DNA of 64,000 bases from Syntrophales bacterium (GCA_963668175.1 OY764159.1:3040001-3104000); one strand, 5' to 3'; positions 53,881-64,000 are shown, counted from the first letter of the stretch. Numbers and translations: made by a program. Notes: generated by a model from the letters alone, not told the origin.

Positions 53881-55245
53881 TTATTTTTCTATCTTCAGAT
53901 CGGACAGGATCGTTCCGCTCTCGTAGCTCAACGCGGCCAGGGCGGTCCTGTAGGCGTTGTCCCGTTCGACGAGACCGGCCCTTGCCTGTTCCAGGCTGGC
54001 CTGGGCGCTCAGGAGATCCGCCAGGGGCGACAGGCCGTTTTCATAACGTATCTTGAGAAGCCGTCTGCCCTCTTCGGCGGTTTTCAAGGCTTCCCGCGAA
54101 AGCTCGATATTCTTCCGGGCCTCGTCGATGTTCAGGTGGGCTTCGTAGATCCGAAAAGAGATGCCCTTCCTCATGGCGGCAAGGAATTCGTCGGCCTGCG
54201 ACGCCAGGTGTTTCGCCTTCACCCGCTCGTACTCCCGCTTCGTCCCGTCGAAGAGGTCCCAGCGGAGGAAGGTCATGACCTGCCAGTTCCGTCCCTCGGA
54301 ACCGAAGGGCTGGTTGTGGTCGTTGAACTGGTAGCTCCCGCCGATGCCCAGGTAGGGGAAATAGCCCGCTTCGGCTAGCTGGATATTTTTCTTCGCGTTT
54401 TCACCCCGAAGCTCCGCGGCCTTGAGGTCTTGGCGCGATTCGGCCGCCTTGGCATAGTAGGACAGGTCCCTGAACGGCAATTCCAGAGTGCCGTCGACGA
54501 TATCGACGGGATCGTTCGTTGCGAGAATGAGCCCCAGGCCGCGCTTGGAGAGACTCACATTCTTGTCGGCCACGATCTTTCTCTGCCGGGTTTCCGTGAG
54601 GGCGGTGGAGGCGCGGAGCACATCGGCATACTGGCTGAGGCCGTTCTTATAGCGCACCTCCGTCACCCGCAGGTGCTCCCGGGCTTCCTCGACGCCTTCC
54701 TCCGCGGCCCGCGCATAGGCCTTCGCACTGACCACTGCCAGACTCGCCCTGACGACCTGGAAAGCCACCTCTTCCTTCTTGCGTTTCAGGTCCGCCTCGG
54801 AAGCCTCCGTCTCCGTCCGGGACATGTCGAGGCCGATAAAGGCCTTTCTGATGTAAAGGGGCTGCTCGACGACCAGGGAAGACTGGTAGTCGTTGATAGC
54901 ATCCGGCTGGTTCAGGAAGTCGGGATTGAAATCCTTCTGTTCGATCCTTGCCTGGTTGAGCCTGGCCATAAAGGCCCAGCCGGGGTTCGTCGTCCGCAGA
55001 TACCGTTCCTCGAAGGATACCTTGGGAAGGAGATAGCTCCGGGCAATGCCGATGTCCTTCTCTTTCGCCAGGGCGGCGTTTTTCTGGACGTTGATTTCAT
55101 GGCTGTCCTGCAGCGCCGCCCGGACGGCATCCGCCACCGTCATCCTTCGTTCGCCGTCGCCGGCGCAAACGGCCGCGGCCTGTAATAAAAGGAAGATAAG
55201 GACCGTTCCCGTTATTCTTCCATACCGGCACACGGATTTCCTCAT
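53881..55245 (-). CDS. TolC family outer-membrane efflux protein
   Basis: Signal peptide from ATG 55245; ARSYLLP, RYKNG, WDLFDG, RYENG. Confidence 0.88.
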   Translation of the reverse strand: MRKSVCRYGRITGTVLIFLLLQAAAVCAGDGERRMTVADAVRAALQDSHEINVQKNAALAKEKDIGIARSYLLPKVSFEERYLRTTNPGWAFMARLNQARIEQKDFNPDFLNQPDAINDYQSSLVVEQPLYIRKAFIGLDMSRTETEASEADLKRKKEEVAFQVVRASLAVVSAKAYARAAEEGVEEAREHLRVTEVRYKNGLSQYADVLRASTALTETRQRKIVADKNVSLSKRGLGLILATNDPVDIVDGTLELPFRDLSYYAKAAESRQDLKAAELRGENAKKNIQLAEAGYFPYLGIGGSYQFNDHNQPFGSEGRNWQVMTFLRWDLFDGTKREYERVKAKHLASQADEFLAAMRKGISFRIYEAHLNIDEARKNIELSREALKTAEEGRRLLKIRYENGLSPLADLLSAQASLEQARAGLVERDNAYRTALAALSYESGTILSDLKIEK

Positions 55246-55268
55246 GAACGCACCCTCCATTCGTTTCG

Positions 55269-55463
55269 TCAGCATTTTCTCGCCACACCGAGTTTTTCCA
55301 GGATATTTTCCATCAGGCACCATTTCGTGAAAGCCGACTGAAGAAGATTGAGCCCGACAAAGGCCGTAAAAAAGAGCCAATACCGGTGATGGAAATAACT
55401 CAGTGCGAGGGAGACCAGGATAAATGTCCCGGCGATGGCCCGAATCATCTCTTCCATCTTCAT
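55269..55463 (-). CDS. DUF2892 (YgaP-like) small membrane protein
   Basis: RAIAG, FVGLNLLQSAFTKWC; AAGGAGG RBS. Confidence 0.9.
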   Translation of the reverse strand: MKMEEMIRAIAGTFILVSLALSYFHHRYWLFFTAFVGLNLLQSAFTKWCLMENILEKLGVARKC

Positions 55464-55844
55464 AGGTCTTTCCTCCTTTGCAGATGAGTCCTTCTCTGTG
55501 ATTCGTCCCGCCTGCGACACCGAACCTCCGCTTCATGAGGGCCGCGGACGATGCCCGTTCCAGGCTGAACCCCGTTTCCGCCCGATATAACGCCGTCAGT
55601 TATTTGCTATTCTACCATAATCATTTTCCGTCGGCAGTCAATAATTGCGAAAATAGAATTTGTATGTAAAGGATTGCCTCTCCCGGACGGTGCGACACGC
55701 CGGCGTCGGACTGAGTATGGTACGATTGCAGTTATTTCCGGAAAACGAGGAGTCCAAGCCTGTCGCCCGAATTTTATGAGCACGAAGATTTACCGGCACG
55801 GGCAACGCGGCTGACCTTGTCTTCCTGGCTCTTTCCGTTTCTTC

Positions 55845-55913: not shown

Positions 55914-56660
55914 ATGCTGAAACGATTCCTTGTCCTGGCCGTTCTTCTTTCTCTTGTTTTCGGCGTTCAGACGACGCCGGCCCAGGAAAAAATCCGTTGC
56001 GCCGTGGCCGCGAACTACATCCAGGCCTTCCAGGAAATTTCCGCCGCCTTCGAGGCGAAGACCGGCGTCAAGGTGGAGGGAACATTCTCGTCTTCAGGAA
56101 ATCTTTACAGCCAGATCGTGAACGGCGCCCCGTACGACCTCTTCCTGTCGGCCGACGAGGAGCGCCCCGCCCGCTTGCTGAAAGAAGGTTTTGCGGAGAG
56201 GCCCTTTGTCTACGCCCGGGGCCGCGTCGTCCTCTGGTCGGCAAAGAAGGTTTTTTGCACGAAATCCGGGTGGCAGGAAGCTCTCAGGGGAGCGGATGTC
56301 AAGAAGATCGCCCTGGCCAACCCGGTGACGGCTCCCTATGGCACCGCCGCCCAGGCGGCCATGCAGAAGACCGGCCTCTGGTCCTCTTTGAAGGATAAAT
56401 GCGTCCAGTCCCAGGATATCGCCCAGGCCTTCCAGTATGCCGCGACCCAGTCCGTGGACGCAGGCTTTTGCGCCCTCTCCTCCGCCGTCTCGCCGGAGGG
56501 ACGCAAAGGCTGTTACTACGCCGTGCCGGAGGCACCGGATATCGTCCAGTCCGCCTGCATCGTCTCCCGGACGAAGAACCGCGCCGCCGCCGAGCGCTTC
56601 GCCGCCTTCCTCCAATCCTCCGAGGCAGCCGCCGTCAAGGAAAAGCTGGGTTACAAGTGA
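55914..56660 (+). CDS. modA: Molybdate ABC transporter substrate-binding protein
   Basis: AVAAN, SSGNLYSQIVNGAPYDLFLSAD, ANPVTAPYG. Confidence 0.93.
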   Translation: MLKRFLVLAVLLSLVFGVQTTPAQEKIRCAVAANYIQAFQEISAAFEAKTGVKVEGTFSSSGNLYSQIVNGAPYDLFLSADEERPARLLKEGFAERPFVYARGRVVLWSAKKVFCTKSGWQEALRGADVKKIALANPVTAPYGTAAQAAMQKTGLWSSLKDKCVQSQDIAQAFQYAATQSVDAGFCALSSAVSPEGRKGCYYAVPEAPDIVQSACIVSRTKNRAAAERFAAFLQSSEAAAVKEKLGYK

Positions 56661-56757: not shown

Positions 56758-57408
56758 TCACTTCTTCAAACGTTTGCGCGACACCGCCGCACCCAGGAGA
56801 CCAGCCCCGAGAAGCAGCATCGTCGCCGGTTCGGGAACGGCCGTCGGCGGTCCCTGCAGCGTAATATTCTCGGACAGGAGCGCACCGGCTTTCCTGCCGT
56901 CCGCATTGACATAGCGTGCCTTGATGCTCGCCTGGTCCGCACCGATCAGAAGCGCACCGTTGTCCACGGTAATATCGAAGACGAATTCATAGTCGGTCCC
57001 GACACCGTTGCCCGTGGTCACGGCAACGCCTTTGCCGCCGTTGGCCAGACCGTAAGCACAGTCGAAGCCGCTGCCGCTTCCCGAACAGCCGCCGGCGTTC
57101 AGGCCGCCCGCCTCGACTCCCCAGTTGGCGACGCCGCCCGGAGCACTTACGACAACGAAGTTCTCCACCTGAGAGGCGACCTTGACCGCGATGTCGGCAA
57201 GGTACAGTCCGCCGCCGTTATACGCATTCGTATCGATATCGAGCGTAATCCGGTAAGTTTCGTGCAGAGGATCGGAATCCGCAAGGGCATATCCGTTGTA
57301 AGAGAGCGTATAAGCCGCCCCCTGGAAAGTAATCGTCTCGGCACAAGCCACGCCCGATAAAAGCAGGAATGCCAGTCCTGCCAGAAGCGTCCACCTCTTT
57401 TTCAACAT
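56758..57408 (-). CDS. PEP-CTERM sorting domain protein
   Basis: Signal peptide; VPEPATMLLLGAGLLG..RKRLKK. Confidence 0.93.
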   Translation of the reverse strand: MLKKRWTLLAGLAFLLLSGVACAETITFQGAAYTLSYNGYALADSDPLHETYRITLDIDTNAYNGGGLYLADIAVKVASQVENFVVVSAPGGVANWGVEAGGLNAGGCSGSGSGFDCAYGLANGGKGVAVTTGNGVGTDYEFVFDITVDNGALLIGADQASIKARYVNADGRKAGALLSENITLQGPPTAVPEPATMLLLGAGLLGAAVSRKRLKK

Positions 57409-57471
57409 AATGCATCTCCTCATGGTTATATTCGGTCCGTCCACCCCGCAAACCAGACAGGCTAAAAACCA

Positions 57472-57487: not shown

Positions 57488-57859
57488 TAATTTCAATATC
57501 CCGATATTCCGTACTATTTTATAAAACGGATTTTTTCCTGTGTAACATATTTGTATAATTCACCAGCACAGTCAAGCAACTCAAGAGACAATATAAGCAT
57601 TATACTCATATATCGTCCTGCTGCGAGTATGACGTCAAAAATAATATATGTAGCTTCTTCGCCTCGCCTGATGCGGTTTTGCGATACTCGTCTATGCGTA
57701 TAACAAATTACCTGACATGCCGCCGGAAACCGCAGGCAAAATTTTCCGTGTCTCCTCGGTCCTTGAAAGAAACCCGCCGAAACCCGGCACCATCGACGGA
57801 CGCCGCATCTTCGGCACGATGTCGGCGCAACGCTTCCTTCTTCCCTGACACGTTGCCGC

Positions 57860-57905
57860 TTGACAGGCCTTCCCATAGGTGCTATTATTTTTTAATTAGT
57901 AACAC
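57860..57905 (+). promoter_or_regulatory. Sigma-70 promoter overlapped by a NikR-like operator
   Basis: TTGACA-N17-TATTAT (57860-57888); GTGCTA-N15-TAACAC (57879-57905). Confidence 0.62.
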
Positions 57906-58080
57906 GACAACGCTATCTGCTTAAGCTTATGTCAAATCTAGTGCATTATTATTTCTATTGTTATTAATGTGTTATTAATATTTATCATATACGCATCGTA
58001 GCACGATTGCAATTTTAATATCTAGGAAAGGCATCGAATCGCCTGCCGTAGCCTGTGGCCGGCAGCGTTCTCTTCGATCC

Positions 58081-58758
58081 ATGAGCCCACAGCGCCTCCA
58101 TATCGCCGCTTCGTTAACCCTTCACGCCGTCTTCTTTTCCCTGATTATTCTCCTGCCGGAGACGCGCCATCAGACTATGCCCGGCATGATCCATATCCAT
58201 CTGATCGAAGCCTCTTCTTCCGCCGGTGTCAAGGATACGGCGCCTCGTCAGGCCACGCGGGCCGTGCCGCCGGTTCCCGCAAAACAGGAAGCCGCCGTTG
58301 CGCCGCCCTTGCCTGAAAATGAAATAACAGCCGCCATAAAGTCAGGGGAAACGGCAGACGCCGGCAACGCACAAAATCGACTTCCCGCGGGCAATTCCAT
58401 GGTCATCGCCGCAAAGCATACCGGCTGGGGAGATCAGGCAGGCACGGCTCCGGCGGCAAGGCATGCCGTTATCGAAACATCCTTCGGCGCAACGGGTGCA
58501 CCGGCGTTCATGCACCGGGAGTCGCCGGTTTATCCTCCGGCTGCGAGAAGGCTGGGAAAGGAAGGGAGGGTCGTCTTAAGGCTCACGATCGACAGCGAAG
58601 GCCGCCTGCAGGCCGTCGAGATCGTCGAAGACGCCGGTTACGGTTTTTCCGAGGCCGCCGTGGAGGCCGTCCGGAAATCGACGTTTGCCCCGGCCCTTCA
58701 GAACGGACAGCGGATAGCGGCCCGGGCGGTTCTGCCCGTTCGTTTCCGTCTTCAGTGA
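58081..58758 (+). CDS. tonB: TonB energy transducer
   Basis: TM SLTLH; PVYPPAARRLGKEGRV..LPVRFRL. Confidence 0.9.
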   Translation: MSPQRLHIAASLTLHAVFFSLIILLPETRHQTMPGMIHIHLIEASSSAGVKDTAPRQATRAVPPVPAKQEAAVAPPLPENEITAAIKSGETADAGNAQNRLPAGNSMVIAAKHTGWGDQAGTAPAARHAVIETSFGATGAPAFMHRESPVYPPAARRLGKEGRVVLRLTIDSEGRLQAVEIVEDAGYGFSEAAVEAVRKSTFAPALQNGQRIAARAVLPVRFRLQ

Positions 58759-58950
58759 AGCGGAGGATGACAAACCGCAAGGAAGGGGGGTAACACGGGC
58801 AGCAGGCAGGAAAAGGATAAGGTCGGAACAGGGAATCCTCGGCAAAGGCGTTTCCCTGCTCCGGAAGGGCAATGTTGTCAACAACATCACCTCTTGAAAG
58901 ACATCGTATCAGAAAAGGAGGTGAAAGGCAAAAAGGAAAGGAGAAAGCCG

Positions 58951-61167
58951 ATGTTCGCACGATGGGGTTGGATATTGATGCTGTTTATGATGGCTTCCCC
59001 GGCATTCGGGGTTGAGAGGGCGGCGGCCAAGACGGAGGGGAAGGACGGAACCAGGATGGAAGAAATCGTCGTCACGGCGACCAGGACGGAAAAGGAACTG
59101 GACACCGCTCCCGGCAGCGTGAACGTCGTGACGAAAAAGGACATTGAAAAGAGGGGAATGCAGACGCCGGACAGCGCCCTGAATACGGTCCCCGGCGTCT
59201 TCAATAGGCGGCAGTCGCTCGCGGATACGCTGTCGAGCATCTCGCTCCACGGCATCCCCGAGCAGAAACGGACCCTGATCATGAAGGACGGCATTGGGAT
59301 CAACAACGCCTACGACGGCGGCGTGGTCTATACGGGCCTGCCCCTGGAAGACGTGGAACGGATCGAGGTCGTGCAGGGCCCGTTTTCCAGCTTGTACGGC
59401 GGTTACGCCATGGGAGGCGTCGTGAATATCGTCACCCGCATGCCGGAAAAGCGGGAAATCGTCGCCAAGGCCGGTTACGGTTCAAGCTGGCACCGGGGGG
59501 AAGCGCCGGACGATCTCCAGAGATACTATGTCTCCTACGGCGACAGGTTCATGGACAAGTGGAGCATCCTGGCAAGCTACGGCTACCGCGGCACCAACGG
59601 CTATTCGAAGGATATCAACGTCCAGTCGTCGAAGCCCACTGCCGGCATCGCCGGCTGGTCTTACACCGGCACGACCGCCGGCGACACCCGTTACGCCATC
59701 GGCGACAAGGGAGACAACGCCTTCTGGGACGACAACCTGAACCTCAAGACACGCTTCGACTTCTCGAAGGCGACGAAGCTGGACCTCTCCTTCATGCGGA
59801 CCCGCTACAAATACAGCTACGACGAACCCCATACGAACCTCAGGAACGCCGCCGGCAATCCCGTCTACGCCTACGGCACGGTTCGGGAGAACAGTTTTCT
59901 CAGCGGCTTCGGCGGCAAGGAGATCAACCGCTACAACGTCGGCTACGAAACGGAATTCGGCCCGGTGAAGACAAAGTTCACCGCCGGTCTGAACGACGAG
60001 GAGAAATCGTGGTACACGACGCCCAACAGCAGCGCCCCCTACGCCACGATCAACGACGGCCCCGGCAAGGTCTCCACAAGCCCCAACCAGAATTACAATG
60101 CCGACCTCCAGTTTACCTTCCCCGTCTTCGGCCGGCAGGTCGTCACGGTGGGAGGGTCCGTGAAGACAAACACCGTCAAGGTCGAGGAGTTCAGCATCAA
60201 CAACTGGAAGAACGAGGACTCCCGGACCGCCCTCACCTACAATGCCGGAGGCAAGGACCGGACCTACGCGGTCTTCCTCCAGGACGAGATCATGATCCTC
60301 CAGAACCTCACCGCCTATGCCGGGTTCCGGGAGGATTTCTGGGAGACCTACGACGGCTACGCCAACCAGTCGGACTCGCCCGGCTACCCGAAGGCGTACG
60401 ATTCGAGAAGCGCGTCGTCGTTCAGTCCGAAGCTGTCCCTCGTCTACAAGCCCCTGGAGAAGACGACCCTTCGAGCATCGGCGGGCCAGGCCTTCCGGGC
60501 GCCGTCCGTCTACGAGCTTTACCGGACTTGGACCTCGACCACAGGCGTCACCTACAACGGCAACCCGGACCTGCAGCCGGAAACGGTGCGGTCGTGGGAC
60601 GCCGCCGTGTCGCAGGGCCTCTGGAAAGGGGCGAAGGTCGGCGCCACTTACTTCGAAAACTATCTCTATGACCTGATTTACCGGAAGACGACATCGGCCA
60701 CGCAATCGGACTACATCAACGCCGGCCGGGCCAAGAGCAAGGGCGTCGTCCTGGAAGCCGAACAACGCTTCGACAAATGGCTCAAGCTTTTTGCCAACTA
60801 CACCTATACGGACGCACGGATCAACGAGAATACGGCGAGCCCCGCCTCGGAGGGAAAAAGGATGACCTTCATGCCCGACCATCTGCTGAACGTCGGAGCG
60901 GAATTCGAAGCGGGCCCCGTATCGGCGTCCGTCACGGGCCGGTACGTCGGCAAGCGTTACGGCAACGACACGAACAGCGACCAGGTGAATGGCGTCTACA
61001 CATCCTACGACCCCTTCTTCACCGCCGATGCCAAGGTGTCCTGCAAGATCATGAAGTTCGCCACGGTATCCGTCTCCATGGAAAACATCCTGGGCGAATC
61101 CCATTTCGAATATTACCAGGCCCCCGGCAGGTCGGTCTTCGCCGAAGTGGAATGGAGGTATTTTTGA
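58951..61167 (+). CDS. TonB-dependent outer-membrane receptor
   Basis: EEIVVTATRT TonB box, VERIEVVQGPFSSLYG, GNPDLQPE, C-terminal PGR..F; AAGGAG RBS. Confidence 0.95.
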   Translation: MFARWGWILMLFMMASPAFGVERAAAKTEGKDGTRMEEIVVTATRTEKELDTAPGSVNVVTKKDIEKRGMQTPDSALNTVPGVFNRRQSLADTLSSISLHGIPEQKRTLIMKDGIGINNAYDGGVVYTGLPLEDVERIEVVQGPFSSLYGGYAMGGVVNIVTRMPEKREIVAKAGYGSSWHRGEAPDDLQRYYVSYGDRFMDKWSILASYGYRGTNGYSKDINVQSSKPTAGIAGWSYTGTTAGDTRYAIGDKGDNAFWDDNLNLKTRFDFSKATKLDLSFMRTRYKYSYDEPHTNLRNAAGNPVYAYGTVRENSFLSGFGGKEINRYNVGYETEFGPVKTKFTAGLNDEEKSWYTTPNSSAPYATINDGPGKVSTSPNQNYNADLQFTFPVFGRQVVTVGGSVKTNTVKVEEFSINNWKNEDSRTALTYNAGGKDRTYAVFLQDEIMILQNLTAYAGFREDFWETYDGYANQSDSPGYPKAYDSRSASSFSPKLSLVYKPLEKTTLRASAGQAFRAPSVYELYRTWTSTTGVTYNGNPDLQPETVRSWDAAVSQGLWKGAKVGATYFENYLYDLIYRKTTSATQSDYINAGRAKSKGVVLEAEQRFDKWLKLFANYTYTDARINENTASPASEGKRMTFMPDHLLNVGAEFEAGPVSASVTGRYVGKRYGNDTNSDQVNGVYTSYDPFFTADAKVSCKIMKFATVSVSMENILGESHFEYYQAPGRSVFAEVEWRYF

Positions 61168-61214
61168 AGCCCGGAGATGTTTGGAATGATCCATTCAGCA
61201 GGAAGGTGCTTGAC

Positions 61215-62579
61215 ATGATTATCTTCGATTCCTTCAGCTTTACCTATCCCGGCATGGACACGCCTGCCTTGCGGGACATCAGTCTCCGGATTGAAGAAGG
61301 TGAGATGGTGTTGTTGCGCGGCCCTTCGGGATCGGGAAAATCGACCCTGCTTTACGCTTTAAACGGCTTGATTCCCCATGTGTTTGCCGGAAAGACCCAC
61401 GGAGACGTCCTGGTGAACGGGCTGAACCCGTCCGGCGTACCTGTACGGGAGATGGCGCGCGTTGTGGGAACGGTCTTCCAGAATCCGGAAAGCCAGATAT
61501 TTATGATGCGCGTGGCAGACGACGTCGCCTTCGGCTGCGAAAACCTGCTTATGCCTCGTGAAGAGATTATCAGCCGCCGCGACATGGCCCTCCGCGCCAT
61601 GGACCTGTGGCATCTGCGGCATCGGGAAACAGCCAGGCTTTCCGGAGGACAGAAACAGCGCCTGGCTGTCAGTTCGATTTATGCCATGGGGCCGGGCGTT
61701 TTCCTGTTCGACGAACCCTCCACAGACCTGGACGACGCGGGAAGGCTGGACTTTAAAAGGATTATCGCAAGACTGAAGGAAGAAAAGAAGACCGTCATCC
61801 TGGCGGAGCATCAGTACGAAGATTTCCTGCCACTCATGGACCGCGTGATAACCTTCGCCGGAGGCGCTATCGCCGGTGAAAGTGACCTCAACGGCGCCTC
61901 CGCCGACGCATCGGGAAGAACCGCAACTTACAGTGGCCTTGCGATATCCTTGCAGGGTATCCATTGCGGCTATGAGCCGGGCAAATCCGTACTCTGCGAC
62001 ATCCATTTGACCGTCGGGCGGGGCGAATTCGTGGCGCTCTGCGGCGCCAACGGGTCCGGCAAGACGACGATCCTGAAAGTCATGGGGGGACTGCTCAGGC
62101 CCAACAAGGGGACAATGACGATTCTTGATGTCCGCCGACCAACCGTCGATGCCCTGGTGGGACGCGTGGGCTTTCTCTTCCAGAATCCCGACGAGCAACT
62201 CTTCTCCCGCACGGTCGCGGAAGAAATTGCCTTCGGACCTTCCCAACTGGGAAAGAGGGCTGACGTGGAGCGCTATCTGGAAATCGGCGGACTGAAACAT
62301 CTCAGACACCGCCATCCGCAAACGTTGTCGCGCGGACAGAGGCAAATCCTGGCGGCGTTATCCGTCATGGCGATGGAGCCGGACCTGTTGCTCCTCGACG
62401 AGCCGACCACGGGCCTCGACGGCGAAAGCTGGAAACGTCTTTTATCGCTTCTCCGCAATTACGCCGACACCGGGAAAACGGTCGTCTTCTCGACGCATAA
62501 CAAAACAGCGGCAGCAGCAGCGCTGCGCAGGATAACGATGCACGAAGGGAGAATCATAGGCGATGAAGTATCTCGATAA
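61215..62579 (+). CDS. ECF transporter fused double ATPase (EcfAA')
   Basis: Two Walker A motifs (GPSGSGKST, GANGSGKTT), FQNPE/FQNPD, LSGGQ/LSRGQ. Confidence 0.92.
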   Translation: MIIFDSFSFTYPGMDTPALRDISLRIEEGEMVLLRGPSGSGKSTLLYALNGLIPHVFAGKTHGDVLVNGLNPSGVPVREMARVVGTVFQNPESQIFMMRVADDVAFGCENLLMPREEIISRRDMALRAMDLWHLRHRETARLSGGQKQRLAVSSIYAMGPGVFLFDEPSTDLDDAGRLDFKRIIARLKEEKKTVILAEHQYEDFLPLMDRVITFAGGAIAGESDLNGASADASGRTATYSGLAISLQGIHCGYEPGKSVLCDIHLTVGRGEFVALCGANGSGKTTILKVMGGLLRPNKGTMTILDVRRPTVDALVGRVGFLFQNPDEQLFSRTVAEEIAFGPSQLGKRADVERYLEIGGLKHLRHRHPQTLSRGQRQILAALSVMAMEPDLLLLDEPTTGLDGESWKRLLSLLRNYADTGKTVVFSTHNKTAAAAALRRITMHEGRIIGDEVSR

Positions 62580-63354
62580 CGACACCTTCATTCACCGACT
62601 GGACCCGAGGACCAAGATCGTCCTGGGCCTTCTGGGGGCCGTGTCTCTCGTCACGCTGAAGACGCCGCTGAGCCTTGCGCTCCTTTTCCTGTGCGTTTTG
62701 GTCTTTTTCGCCGTTGTCCGCCCGCCCCGCAAAACGATATGGACCACAGCTATGATTATGGCCACGGCACTCTGTTTCACCATGATATCTCAAGGATTCT
62801 TTTACGGGCTCCATCCCCGGACCGCAATCCTGACGCTGGTGCCGCCGGACGCAGGGATCGCCGGCCGCATTACGGGAGGCATCGTTCTGTATCGGGAAGG
62901 CCTGGTCTACGGGGCGCTTCAGAGTCTCAGGCTCTTTTCCGCCATGCTTTTGAGCTCCATTATCGTCATGTCCACCTACCCTTCCGATCTTCTGCTCGGG
63001 ATGGAAGAACTCGGCGTTCCGGAAAAAATCGGATTTGTCGTCGCCGTCAGCATCCGCTTTCTCCCGACCCTCATCGAGGAGGCGGGACGCATCCTTCTGG
63101 CTCAGAAACTCAGGGGTGTTCATGCAAAAGGTGTCCGGGGCGGCTTCAGGGCCTTCCGCCATTTATTGCCGCCGCTTGTCATCGACAGCCTGAGGAATGC
63201 CCGCCGAACTGCCATCGCCGCTGAAATCCGCGCTTTTACGGGCAAGAGGACCAAGGTCACGGCGTTGAAGTTCACGCGAAACGACTGGCTGTTTCTCGCT
63301 TTTTCCATCGCCGGCATATTGATATTGATCTTCGGTCAGGAATTACAGTCATGA
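62563..63354 (+). CDS. ecfT: ECF transporter transmembrane T component (CbiQ/EcfT)
   Basis: HRLDPRTK, IRFLPTL, AQKLRG, AEIRAF. Confidence 0.92.
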   Translation: MKYLDNDTFIHRLDPRTKIVLGLLGAVSLVTLKTPLSLALLFLCVLVFFAVVRPPRKTIWTTAMIMATALCFTMISQGFFYGLHPRTAILTLVPPDAGIAGRITGGIVLYREGLVYGALQSLRLFSAMLLSSIIVMSTYPSDLLLGMEELGVPEKIGFVVAVSIRFLPTLIEEAGRILLAQKLRGVHAKGVRGGFRAFRHLLPPLVIDSLRNARRTAIAAEIRAFTGKRTKVTALKFTRNDWLFLAFSIAGILILIFGQELQS

Positions 63355-63971
63355 ATCTCTACATCGGCTCCGTCATCTTCATCGCCCTTCTGGGGGCCGC
63401 CGCGTTCCATCTCATGAAGACGCGCAAGGCGATTCCTGCCTTCAGCATCCAGGACCTGGTCATTGCTGCGCTTTTTTGCAGCCTCCTTTATATAGCCATT
63501 CTGCCGTTCAAATTCGGCCTGAGCCGCATACCCTTCGTCCAGTCCTTTTTCTTTTCCATACCGTACACGGCCGTCCTGTTCATAGGCATCCGTCTCATTC
63601 CCCGGCCGGGAACCGCCACGCTCATCATCTGCGGCCATACCCTCCTGTCCCAGACGATTTCCAGCGGCATCAATCCGCTCTGGTGGCCCTACGCTCTCCT
63701 GCCGAGCTGCATCCTGGAACTCTATTTCCTCGCGACGGGGAATTATCTGGAAACTGTGGGCAATGCCCTGGGGGCCGGCTTCCTGCGCGGCTTGACCGTT
63801 TACATCTATTTCTATTGCTTTTCCGCCCCCTTCATCTGGCACCAGTTTTATGCGCCCTGGTACATCGCCGTCCAGACGGTGCAGGGTACAGCAGGTTCCA
63901 TGATAGGGGCCCTGCTCGGCGTGTATCTGGGCAAACCGATCATCAGCGCCTCCCGTTACGGGGGAATCTAA
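63351..63971 (+). CDS. Putative ECF S component (MptD/Trep_Strep-like)
   Basis: 6-7 TM; FSIQDLVIAALF, IPRPG; overlaps the ecfT stop. Confidence 0.7.
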   Translation: MNLYIGSVIFIALLGAAAFHLMKTRKAIPAFSIQDLVIAALFCSLLYIAILPFKFGLSRIPFVQSFFFSIPYTAVLFIGIRLIPRPGTATLIICGHTLLSQTISSGINPLWWPYALLPSCILELYFLATGNYLETVGNALGAGFLRGLTVYIYFYCFSAPFIWHQFYAPWYIAVQTVQGTAGSMIGALLGVYLGKPIISASRYGGI

Positions 63972-64000
63972 GGAAGGATACGTCATGGCATTCTACAAAG

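Follow-up and report, generated by a model that had tools for sequence, protein, structure and literature searches.

The final part of a 64,000-bp stretch of DNA from a Syntrophales bacterium (the window; G000:C1:3040001-3104000, G000 being the window genome) carries a series of genes which combines a TonB-dependent receptor (TBDR) with an importer of the energy-coupling factor (ECF) type and with a radical S-adenosylmethionine (rSAM) enzyme, situated behind a putative operator of the nickel regulator NikR. The locus is described here as a candidate system for nickel acquisition. Positions are those of the window if not stated otherwise; the sequence was fetched across and beyond the window end (L002).

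Gene content and organization of the operon

All genes of the series lie on the plus strand. It begins with tonB (58081-58758, 225 aa; TonB_C 75 bits, TIGR01352 60 bits), which is followed by the receptor gene (58894-61167; Plug 82 bits, barrel 179 bits). The open reading frame (ORF) of the latter has a TTG start at 58894, and the ATG at 58951, after which a signal peptide follows, is the likelier start. Next come a fused ECF ATPase (EcfA-EcfA', 61209-62579, 456 aa) with two ABC_tran stretches and a score of 338 bits against TIGR04520 (cut-off 315), a T component of the EcfT/CbiQ family (62563-63354, 263 aa; PF02361 113 bits, cut-off 25), and a membrane protein of 206 aa with seven predicted helices (63351-63971), which fold searches of its AlphaFold model assign to the S components. 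The last gene codes for an rSAM protein of 245 aa (PF04055 60 bits); it starts at 63985 and ends beyond the window at the equivalent of position 64722 (G000:C1:3104722; L002 6985-7722). An earlier note on this DNA had listed the first five of these genes in series, which the domain scans bear out, and had seen a further ORF starting at 63985, which is now recognized as the complete rSAM gene.

Since the ATPase and T genes overlap by 17 nt, the T and S genes by 4 nt, and only 14 nt separate the S and rSAM genes, the six genes are read as a single operon of the order tonB-TBDR-ecfAA'-ecfT-S-rSAM. Judged by their domains, TonB and the receptor would provide a complete outer-membrane step, and ATPase, EcfT, and S component a complete dedicated ECF module of group I. 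There is no gene for a soluble binding protein between tonB and the rSAM gene, and the remark in the earlier note that no periplasmic binding protein is in view holds true within the window. Concerning the substrate class of the receptor, no NCBIfam equivalog is reached at its cut-off (TonB-hemin 199.5 versus 316.85 bits, TonB-B12 173 versus 600 bits), and the similarity to solved relatives in the PDB exists mainly at the level of the plug.

Promoter, operator, and leader

Upstream of tonB, a sigma-70 promoter is predicted on the plus strand (57860-57888), consisting of a -35 hexamer TTGACA (57860-57865), a spacer of 17 nt, and a TG-extended -10 hexamer TATTAT (57883-57888). With 11 of 12 matches, it scores best among the five promoter-like sites in L002 300-9100 (8.8 kb). 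Both the -10 hexamer and the position at which transcription should start fall within a strand-symmetric element of 27 bp (57879-57905), the putative NikR operator, in which GTGCTAT (57879-57885) and GTAACAC (57899-57905) flank 13 positions that are all A or T. This confirms the palindrome GTGCTA-N15-TAACAC that the earlier note had placed over the promoter, and locates it on the -10 hexamer.

In PMC545781, the NikR signal of delta-proteobacteria is given as GTGTTAC-[N13/14]-GTAACAC and the site of Desulfovibrio vulgaris nikMQO as GTGTTAt-[N13]-GTAACAC, from which the operon box differs by one mismatch; sites with other half-site orientations are also on record there. The window genome (4.57 Mb) was scanned with the pattern GTGTTAY/RTAACAC in any orientation and with a spacing of N13/14, which yielded two perfect sites, five sites with at most one mismatch, and 90 with at most two. 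Both perfect sites are situated at nikR/nikM, and the site of the tonB operon is among the five. The remaining two sites with at most one mismatch (2093094 and 3959185), one of which is a GC-rich repeat, were taken as chance occurrences. A strict scan for inverted repeats only had found no perfect site genome-wide and had missed the nik operon; the scan was widened to either orientation because the boxes of the nik operon are direct repeats. When the 621 bp upstream were shuffled locally, 7 of 2000 trials produced a site with at most one mismatch.

The operator is followed by an AT-rich leader of about 185 nt (57906-58080, plus strand), which is devoid of riboswitches: an Rfam scan at E<=1 gave no match and hence neither a cobalamin nor a thiamine pyrophosphate (TPP) riboswitch before tonB. 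The best Fur box upstream of the operon reached 12 of 19 positions and is not distinctive, given that 648 sites in the genome reach at least 13. A response to B12 or to a vitamin, which the earlier note had named as an outcome that would speak against nickel, is not indicated by any such element before the operon, nor is there a good Fur box. Two further half-sites are found within the leader, GTGTTAT (57969) and GTAGCAC (57998); they are 22 bp apart and do not have the 13/14 spacing of a full operator.

nikR and the demand for nickel in the window genome

The genome contains one nikR, with ribbon-helix-helix (RHH) and NikR_C domains (NikR_C 112 bits), so that the absence of this regulator, which the earlier note had considered as a counterargument, does not apply. 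It heads the operon nikR-nikM-nikQ-nikO, in which NikM scores 199 bits (PF01891). Boxes are found before nikR (GTGTTAT-N14-GTGTTAC) and between nikR and nikM (GTAACAC-N13-GTAACAC; L004 7360-7900 = G000:C1:1357360-1357900), and the half-sites of the tonB-operon box are the same as those flanking the genome's own nikR and nikM. The boxes of the nik operon are direct repeats, whereas that of the tonB operon is inverted; the orientation of the half-sites thus seems to be free. As NiFe hydrogenases and two catalytic subunits of carbon monoxide dehydrogenase (CODH) are encoded, the organism is predicted to need nickel.

Orthologous operons in related genomes

Within the family, four of nine genomes encode the S protein, and within the class 20 of 339 do so; public names of the relatives include Syntrophales, Smithella, and Syntrophorhabdaceae. 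Fifteen orthologous loci were fetched, 14 of which hold the receptor start and were scanned for boxes. The order TBDR-ecfAA'-ecfT-S-rSAM is intact in 12 of the 15, two are truncated where their contig ends, and in one the genes are rearranged and the rSAM gene is divergent; as the last gene of the operon, the rSAM gene is conserved across these loci. A box with at most two mismatches lies upstream in all 14 scanned loci and one with at most one mismatch in eight, whereas shuffles of each 621-bp region gave such sites in 4-10% and 0.2-0.7% of trials, respectively. One locus (L030) possesses a perfect GTGTTAT-N13-GTAACAC at -102. The assignment of the box to the NikR-type operators, as proposed in the earlier note, is accordingly upheld by the published consensus, the half-sites of the genome's own nik operon, and the conservation in orthologues.

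In all five operon-bearing genomes examined, nikR is present. A copy is situated directly upstream of the operon's tonB in G188, G191, and G102, and about 3 kb past the rSAM gene in G100, whereas G003 has a single copy, which is located on a different contig; a second copy exists elsewhere in G191, G102, and G100. The G191 locus reads box-nikR-boxes-tonB-exbB-exbD-TBDR-ecfAA'-ecfT-S-rSAM. A tblastn search with the NikR of the window organism as query found a nikR homologue in the fetched flank of 10 of the 15 loci. The operon-linked copies retain, like those of the nik operons, the N-terminal RFGVSL strand and the motif HxHx5C, which in E. coli NikR binds nickel with high affinity. Neither a cobalamin nor a TPP riboswitch (gathering threshold) precedes the operon in 10 orthologous loci.

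Some peculiarities of single loci may be added. In L031 (547-950), the alignment of the operon-linked nikR is split between two neighbouring reading frames (residues 1-72 and 73-135), which points to a frameshift or to a fault in the assembly. Near the nikR-linked operon of G102 (L033 13117-13701), matches to group II introns (RF00029, RF01999) are located. In G191, a 179-aa protein without family and a 327-aa methyltransferase of the leucine carboxyl methyltransferase (LCM) type (PF04072) are encoded on the operon strand between the rSAM gene and a BtuF-like gene (L028 3594-5049); both are absent from the window organism.

The S component

The 206-aa protein has no match in Pfam and none in NCBIfam at E<=0.01. 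Its AlphaFold model, computed from an alignment of 24 family members, has seven helices and a mean predicted local distance difference test (pLDDT) score of 86.9. In a Foldseek search, the single match at E<=0.001 was the ECF S component 5edl (E 3.6e-4, template modelling (TM) score 0.60), and in the VIA search, which does not depend on Foldseek, S components of ECF importers filled ranks 1-14, headed by 5edl (Z 16.3, root-mean-square deviation 3.1 A over 172 residues) and followed by 4huq_S (Z 12.9), RibU (11.7), ThiT, FolT, BioY, PanT, the NikM-type 4m5c (Z 10.1), and BtuM. On the strength of this model, the protein can be regarded as a genuine ECF S component.

The family is small, with 63 clusters in a collection of 5.8 billion sequences and 74 clusters at 50% identity among 1.84 billion proteins. 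Among 24 members, seven match PF09819 weakly (best E 0.0089), and the window protein has no match. Nine of 25 remote relatives scanned match PF09819 at E<=0.01, three of them above the gathering cut-off of 25.2 bits; three other remote relatives are fusions of EcfT and S (P0184 and P0190 being named examples). The protein thus appears to represent a small, divergent new family which is remotely linked to PF09819 (ABC_cobalt, YkoE-type). Its invariant residues comprise E123, R146, W163-H164, N108, and the motif NPLWWP.

Two assignments were rejected. The protein is not a NikM/CbiM, as there is no PF01891 match, the N-terminus reads MNLYIGS instead of the MHIPDGY of the genome's own NikM, and the structural similarity to 4m5c is limited (Z 10.1); this agrees with the non-NikM S component postulated in the earlier note. 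That note had also called the protein MptD-like. The S component stands, whereas the likeness to MptD holds in a loose sense at best: only two of the 24 members match PF09605 (best E 0.21), no convincing match to PF09605 or TIGR02185 (MptD/Trep_Strep) exists, the nearest fold is 5edl, and the sequence link leads to PF09819.

The radical SAM enzyme and its contexts in other phyla

The rSAM protein carries the cluster motif CX3CX2C at C22/C26/C29, which is invariant in 18 sequences. It reaches no named NCBIfam at cut-off; a search of the ESM Atlas returned generic names only, and the database labels of the family are 'radical SAM protein' or 'pyruvate formate lyase activating enzyme'. With at least 476 clusters, nearly all of 245 aa length, the family is far wider than that of the S component, and its members from Syntrophales, Planctomycetota, Verrucomicrobiota, Lentisphaerota, Anaerolineae, Methanomassiliicoccales, and Bathyarchaeota are 55-62% identical to each other.

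The neighbours of the rSAM gene were inspected in 65 loci outside the first set (L057-L121). A permease/ATPase of the FecCD type adjoins it in 49 of these, often with a Peripla_BP_2 gene directly before the rSAM gene, so that the latter lies within binding-protein/FecCD ABC operons in Planctomycetota, Verrucomicrobiota, Lentisphaerota, and archaea. Three loci show the ECF/S arrangement, and 13, mostly archaeal or on short contigs, contain neither importer. Since the ECF transporter of the Syntrophales holds the position that binding-protein/FecCD systems hold in other phyla, we read it as a probable non-orthologous replacement around the same enzyme. The rSAM gene is the most informative partner in the operon and may be called its signature gene.

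In the superphylum of Planctomycetota, Verrucomicrobiota, and Chlamydiota (PVC), the first gene of the rSAM operons usually codes for a pseudopilin-like protein with DUF1559. In Planctomycetota and Verrucomicrobiota (L070 6265-11748, L063, L076, L110, and others), a DUF3344/PEP-CTERM protein is situated after DUF1559 and ahead of the binding protein, and Lentisphaerota loci have the DUF1559 protein only. Possibly, these DUF1559 and DUF3344/PEP-CTERM proteins substitute for the step at the outer membrane. The verrucomicrobial locus L115 possesses a TonB-dependent receptor which is 34% identical to that of the window.

Concerning regulation, 17 NikR boxes with at most one mismatch are found in 890 kb of the loci from other phyla. 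Within 3.5 kb of the rSAM gene, boxes with at most two mismatches occur upstream in 21 of 55 loci versus downstream in 6 of 56, and those with at most one mismatch number seven upstream versus two downstream. L070 and L076 possess perfect boxes just ahead of the first operon gene, and in eight archaeal loci a box precedes the rSAM gene itself by 37-92 bp. Outside Syntrophales, 16 of 62 loci have a nikR homologue in their flank (Verrucomicrobiota, Planctomycetota, Lentisphaerota, and Bathyarchaeota). No cobalamin riboswitch precedes the rSAM operon in 18 loci of other phyla, and a TPP riboswitch (gathering threshold) is likewise lacking; the only cobalamin riboswitch match, that of L115, lies on the other strand as part of a neighbouring B12 cluster.

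Two loci of Methanomassiliicoccaceae (L107 8350-10619 and L113 5714-7946) exhibit the order box-rSAM-Methyltransf_11, followed by a 226-aa GTPase of the CobW/HypB/UreG family, and this cluster looks like a compact archaeal operon for nickel starvation. None of the other fetched loci has a counterpart of the methyltransferase or of the G3E GTPase; in the window genome, two weak matches to the methyltransferase and none to the GTPase were found.

Genes in the vicinity

Past the rSAM gene and just beyond the window, an island for corrinoid uptake and salvage is situated (G000:C1:3104892-3111858; L002 7892-14858). Its first gene, 170 bp past the rSAM gene and oriented opposite to the operon, codes for a BtuF-like binding protein (L002 7892-8731) and has no riboswitch. 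A first cobalamin riboswitch (L002 8829-8998, 68.5 bits) precedes btuC (FecCD) and btuD, and a second one (L002 10833-11007, 94.4 bits) precedes a second receptor, CbiZ, and a second TonB. In view of synteny and of the adjacent riboswitch-controlled btuCD, which lack any other binding protein, the BtuF-like gene is assigned to this B12 cluster. The earlier note had held that a binding protein following downstream would contradict its reading; such a gene does follow, on the opposite strand, but synteny places it outside the operon.

Upstream of the operon, the window contains a divergent gene for a 228-aa PEP-CTERM protein (56758-57444, minus strand), about 80 bp ahead of whose start a weaker NikR-like element with two mismatches is found (ATAAAAC-N14-GTAACAT, 57521-57548). 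Farther upstream are the genes for an efflux protein of the outer membrane (OEP; 53881-55536, minus strand) and for a solute-binding protein (SBP_bac_11; 55914-56660, plus strand), both without evident relation to the operon.

Proposed function of the operon

Taken together, the operon probably serves the nickel-repressed uptake of a nickel complex across two membranes by way of the receptor and the ECF importer, with subsequent processing by the cytoplasmic rSAM enzyme; the nickel responsiveness, the chemistry of the substrate, and the reaction of the rSAM enzyme are what we infer from the comparisons above. When nickel is plentiful, Ni-NikR would block the operon promoter, and when it is scarce, the cell would build the two-membrane import route. 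The TonB-energized receptor would carry a nickel species, most probably a complex with a small organic ligand, through the outer membrane, and the dedicated group-I ECF importer with its new S component of YkoE fold would move it from the periplasm to the cytoplasm without a soluble binding protein. The rSAM enzyme would then act on the imported ligand or on a step of nickel handling, plausibly freeing the metal anaerobically. The reason for taking the substrate to be a nickel-ligand complex is that chelates are the usual cargo of TonB-dependent receptors, BtuF-like binding proteins, and FecCD permeases. The general nickel-uptake reading of the earlier note was supported by every in silico test to which it was subjected.

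A more specific form of this proposal is possible, albeit doubtful: the organism might practise anaerobic nickel piracy, importing a nickel-containing organic molecule that other microbes have made, be it a dedicated nickelophore or a nickel tetrapyrrole (e.g., F430 of methanogens), the ligand of which the rSAM enzyme would break without oxygen so that the nickel is set free. If true, the enzyme would constitute the nickel counterpart of heme degradation by radical SAM enzymes, and a function of the NikR regulon that is common to bacteria and archaea.

Several observations weigh against nickel-complex uptake with rSAM processing. The operon box deviates at two positions from the strict consensus, no nikR adjoins the operon in the window genome, and this genome is already equipped with nikMQO. 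The two best NCBIfam scores of the receptor belong to a heme and a B12 model, both below threshold, and the nearest structures of the rSAM protein are generic cores, namely pyruvate formate lyase activating enzyme (PFL-AE; TMq 0.67), followed by MoaA, viperin, and NifB. The 14 scanned loci are kin and no independent trials, even if they span at least five families. Lentisphaerota loci mostly have no boxes of the operon type despite a nearby nikR. In archaea, the rSAM gene often has no transporter alongside, and such stand-alone enzymes may have an intracellular function in nickel starvation that involves no imported ligand. Finally, the adjacency to the corrinoid cluster recurs in at least three Syntrophales genomes (including L028/L029) and in the verrucomicrobial L115, which leaves room for a corrin-like substrate or nickel compound, or for a functional tie to corrinoid salvage.

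The last but one of these points leads to an alternative which we hold to be unlikely, namely that free Ni(II) or Ni-(His)2 is imported, as reported for Helicobacter FrpB4/NiuBDE, and that the rSAM enzyme does not process a ligand and is a co-regulated function of nickel starvation (sparing, or maturation of a cofactor or metallocentre). It would account for the archaeal rSAM genes that often stand alone behind their own NikR-type box and for the two archaeal loci in which a methyltransferase and a CobW/HypB/UreG-type GTPase follow, and NikR-regulated TonB-dependent nickel receptors are indeed on record (PMC11247825). However, the bacterial rSAM gene lies inside transporter operons, in 12 of the 15 loci from Syntrophales and in 49 of the 65 from other phyla, often between the genes for binding protein and permease; its tight linkage to two non-homologous types of importer suggests a role connected with the imported species.

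That the operon belongs to the B12 island and imports a corrinoid, cobalt, or some other tetrapyrrole, with a palindrome that is incidental or belongs to another regulator, appears improbable. The island with its BtuF-like gene, two cobalamin riboswitches, btuC, btuD, second receptor, CbiZ, and second TonB follows immediately downstream, the same adjacency exists in L028/L029 and L115, and TonB-B12 is the second-best NCBIfam match of the receptor. Nevertheless, the neighbouring B12 units have riboswitches of their own, whereas the operon has none at E<=1, and neither do the 10 Syntrophales and 18 other related loci; moreover, adjacency to nikR and conserved NikR boxes are not to be expected for B12 genes.

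Uptake of heme or of an iron chelate, from which the rSAM enzyme would free the iron anaerobically by analogy with ChuW/HutW, is very improbable. The best NCBIfam match of the receptor is TonB-hemin, albeit below its cut-off, and a cytoplasmic enzyme in the operon is typical of iron-chelate systems; on the other hand, a good Fur box is lacking, the rSAM protein, with 245 aa, a single cluster motif, and its closest similarity to PFL-AE/MoaA, is not HemN-like, and the NikR boxes and the nikR linkage point elsewhere. A vitamin importer for thiamine or hydroxymethylpyrimidine (HMP), finally, is the least credible alternative: 5edl, presumably YkoE with thiamine bound, is the nearest solved fold, four listed relatives are named 'ABC-type thiamin/hydroxymethylpyrimidine transport system permease subunit' by JGI, and fused ATPase, T, and S are combined in a similar way to YkoCDE, but TPP riboswitches are absent from L002 (E<=1) and from 28 related loci (gathering threshold), the identity to 5edl amounts to 19-22%, the family profile finds no PDB sequence at E<=10, and the evidence for NikR speaks against it.

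Comparison with known systems

Hydrogenases, CO dehydrogenase, and methanogenesis depend on nickel, which is a limiting element for anaerobic communities. Known bacterial routes for its uptake are NikABCDE, NikMNQO, NiCoT, and Helicobacter FrpB4 with NiuBDE. The present locus points to a further, uncharacterised nickel-acquisition module that, by its gene distribution, appears to be widespread among anaerobes. The open-access literature yielded no account of a NikR-linked radical SAM enzyme, of a link between nickelophores and radical SAM enzymes, or of a nickel system combining a TonB receptor with an ECF importer.

The organization is closely paralleled by NikMNQO/NikKLMQO under NikR in delta-proteobacteria, which likewise constitute group-I ECF importers with a T component of the CbiQ family and the same type of operator (PMC545781). 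In contrast to these, the operon described here possesses an S component that is neither NikM nor CbiM and a fused A-A' ATPase, and it adds tonB, a TonB-dependent receptor, and the rSAM gene. The differences from the known NikR-repressed uptake thus lie in the S family, the direct pairing of receptor and ECF importer, and the rSAM partner.

Helicobacter NiuBDE (CeuE/FecDE) parallels the BtuF-like/FecCD versions of the rSAM module in other phyla, whereas the inner-membrane step of the operon studied here is taken over by an ECF importer instead of FecCD and a binding protein; a radical SAM partner of the Helicobacter nickel route is not known to us. Compared with the receptors of Helicobacter and other characterised nickel receptors, that of the window shows no specific similarity, and its match to CntO exists via the plug only. 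The outer-membrane part of the Helicobacter route (FrpB4/FecA3/NikH with TonB) is, according to PMC11247825, a nickel-regulated TonB-dependent uptake as proposed here.

With the group-I importer YkoEDC, the system has the fold of the S component in common (5edl being the nearest solved one), whereas a direct match of hidden Markov models (HMMs) is lacking at the low identity given above, an extra N-terminal helix is present as in NikM/CbiM, and an operator of NikR type replaces the TPP riboswitch.

ChuW/HutW are the radical SAM enzymes of anaerobic heme-uptake operons. The logic of these operons is shared by the present one in that a receptor, an inner-membrane importer, and a cytoplasmic, oxygen-independent rSAM enzyme would act on an imported metal chelate, but the rSAM enzyme described here, with 245 aa, one cluster motif, and a PFL-AE/MoaA-like core, is not HemN-like, and the predicted regulation is of the NikR and not of the Fur type. 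Beyond the single locus, the comparison outlines a module marked by a highly conserved rSAM enzyme and linked to NikR in five or more phyla, and suggests a function for a widespread 'PFL-activase-like' family without a name in the databases. The locus itself would offer a concrete example of a TonB-dependent receptor that feeds an ECF importer instead of a binding-protein system, as well as of a non-orthologous replacement of FecCD by ECF around the same enzyme, and it might serve as an entry point to the identity of the natural nickel ligands in anoxic habitats.

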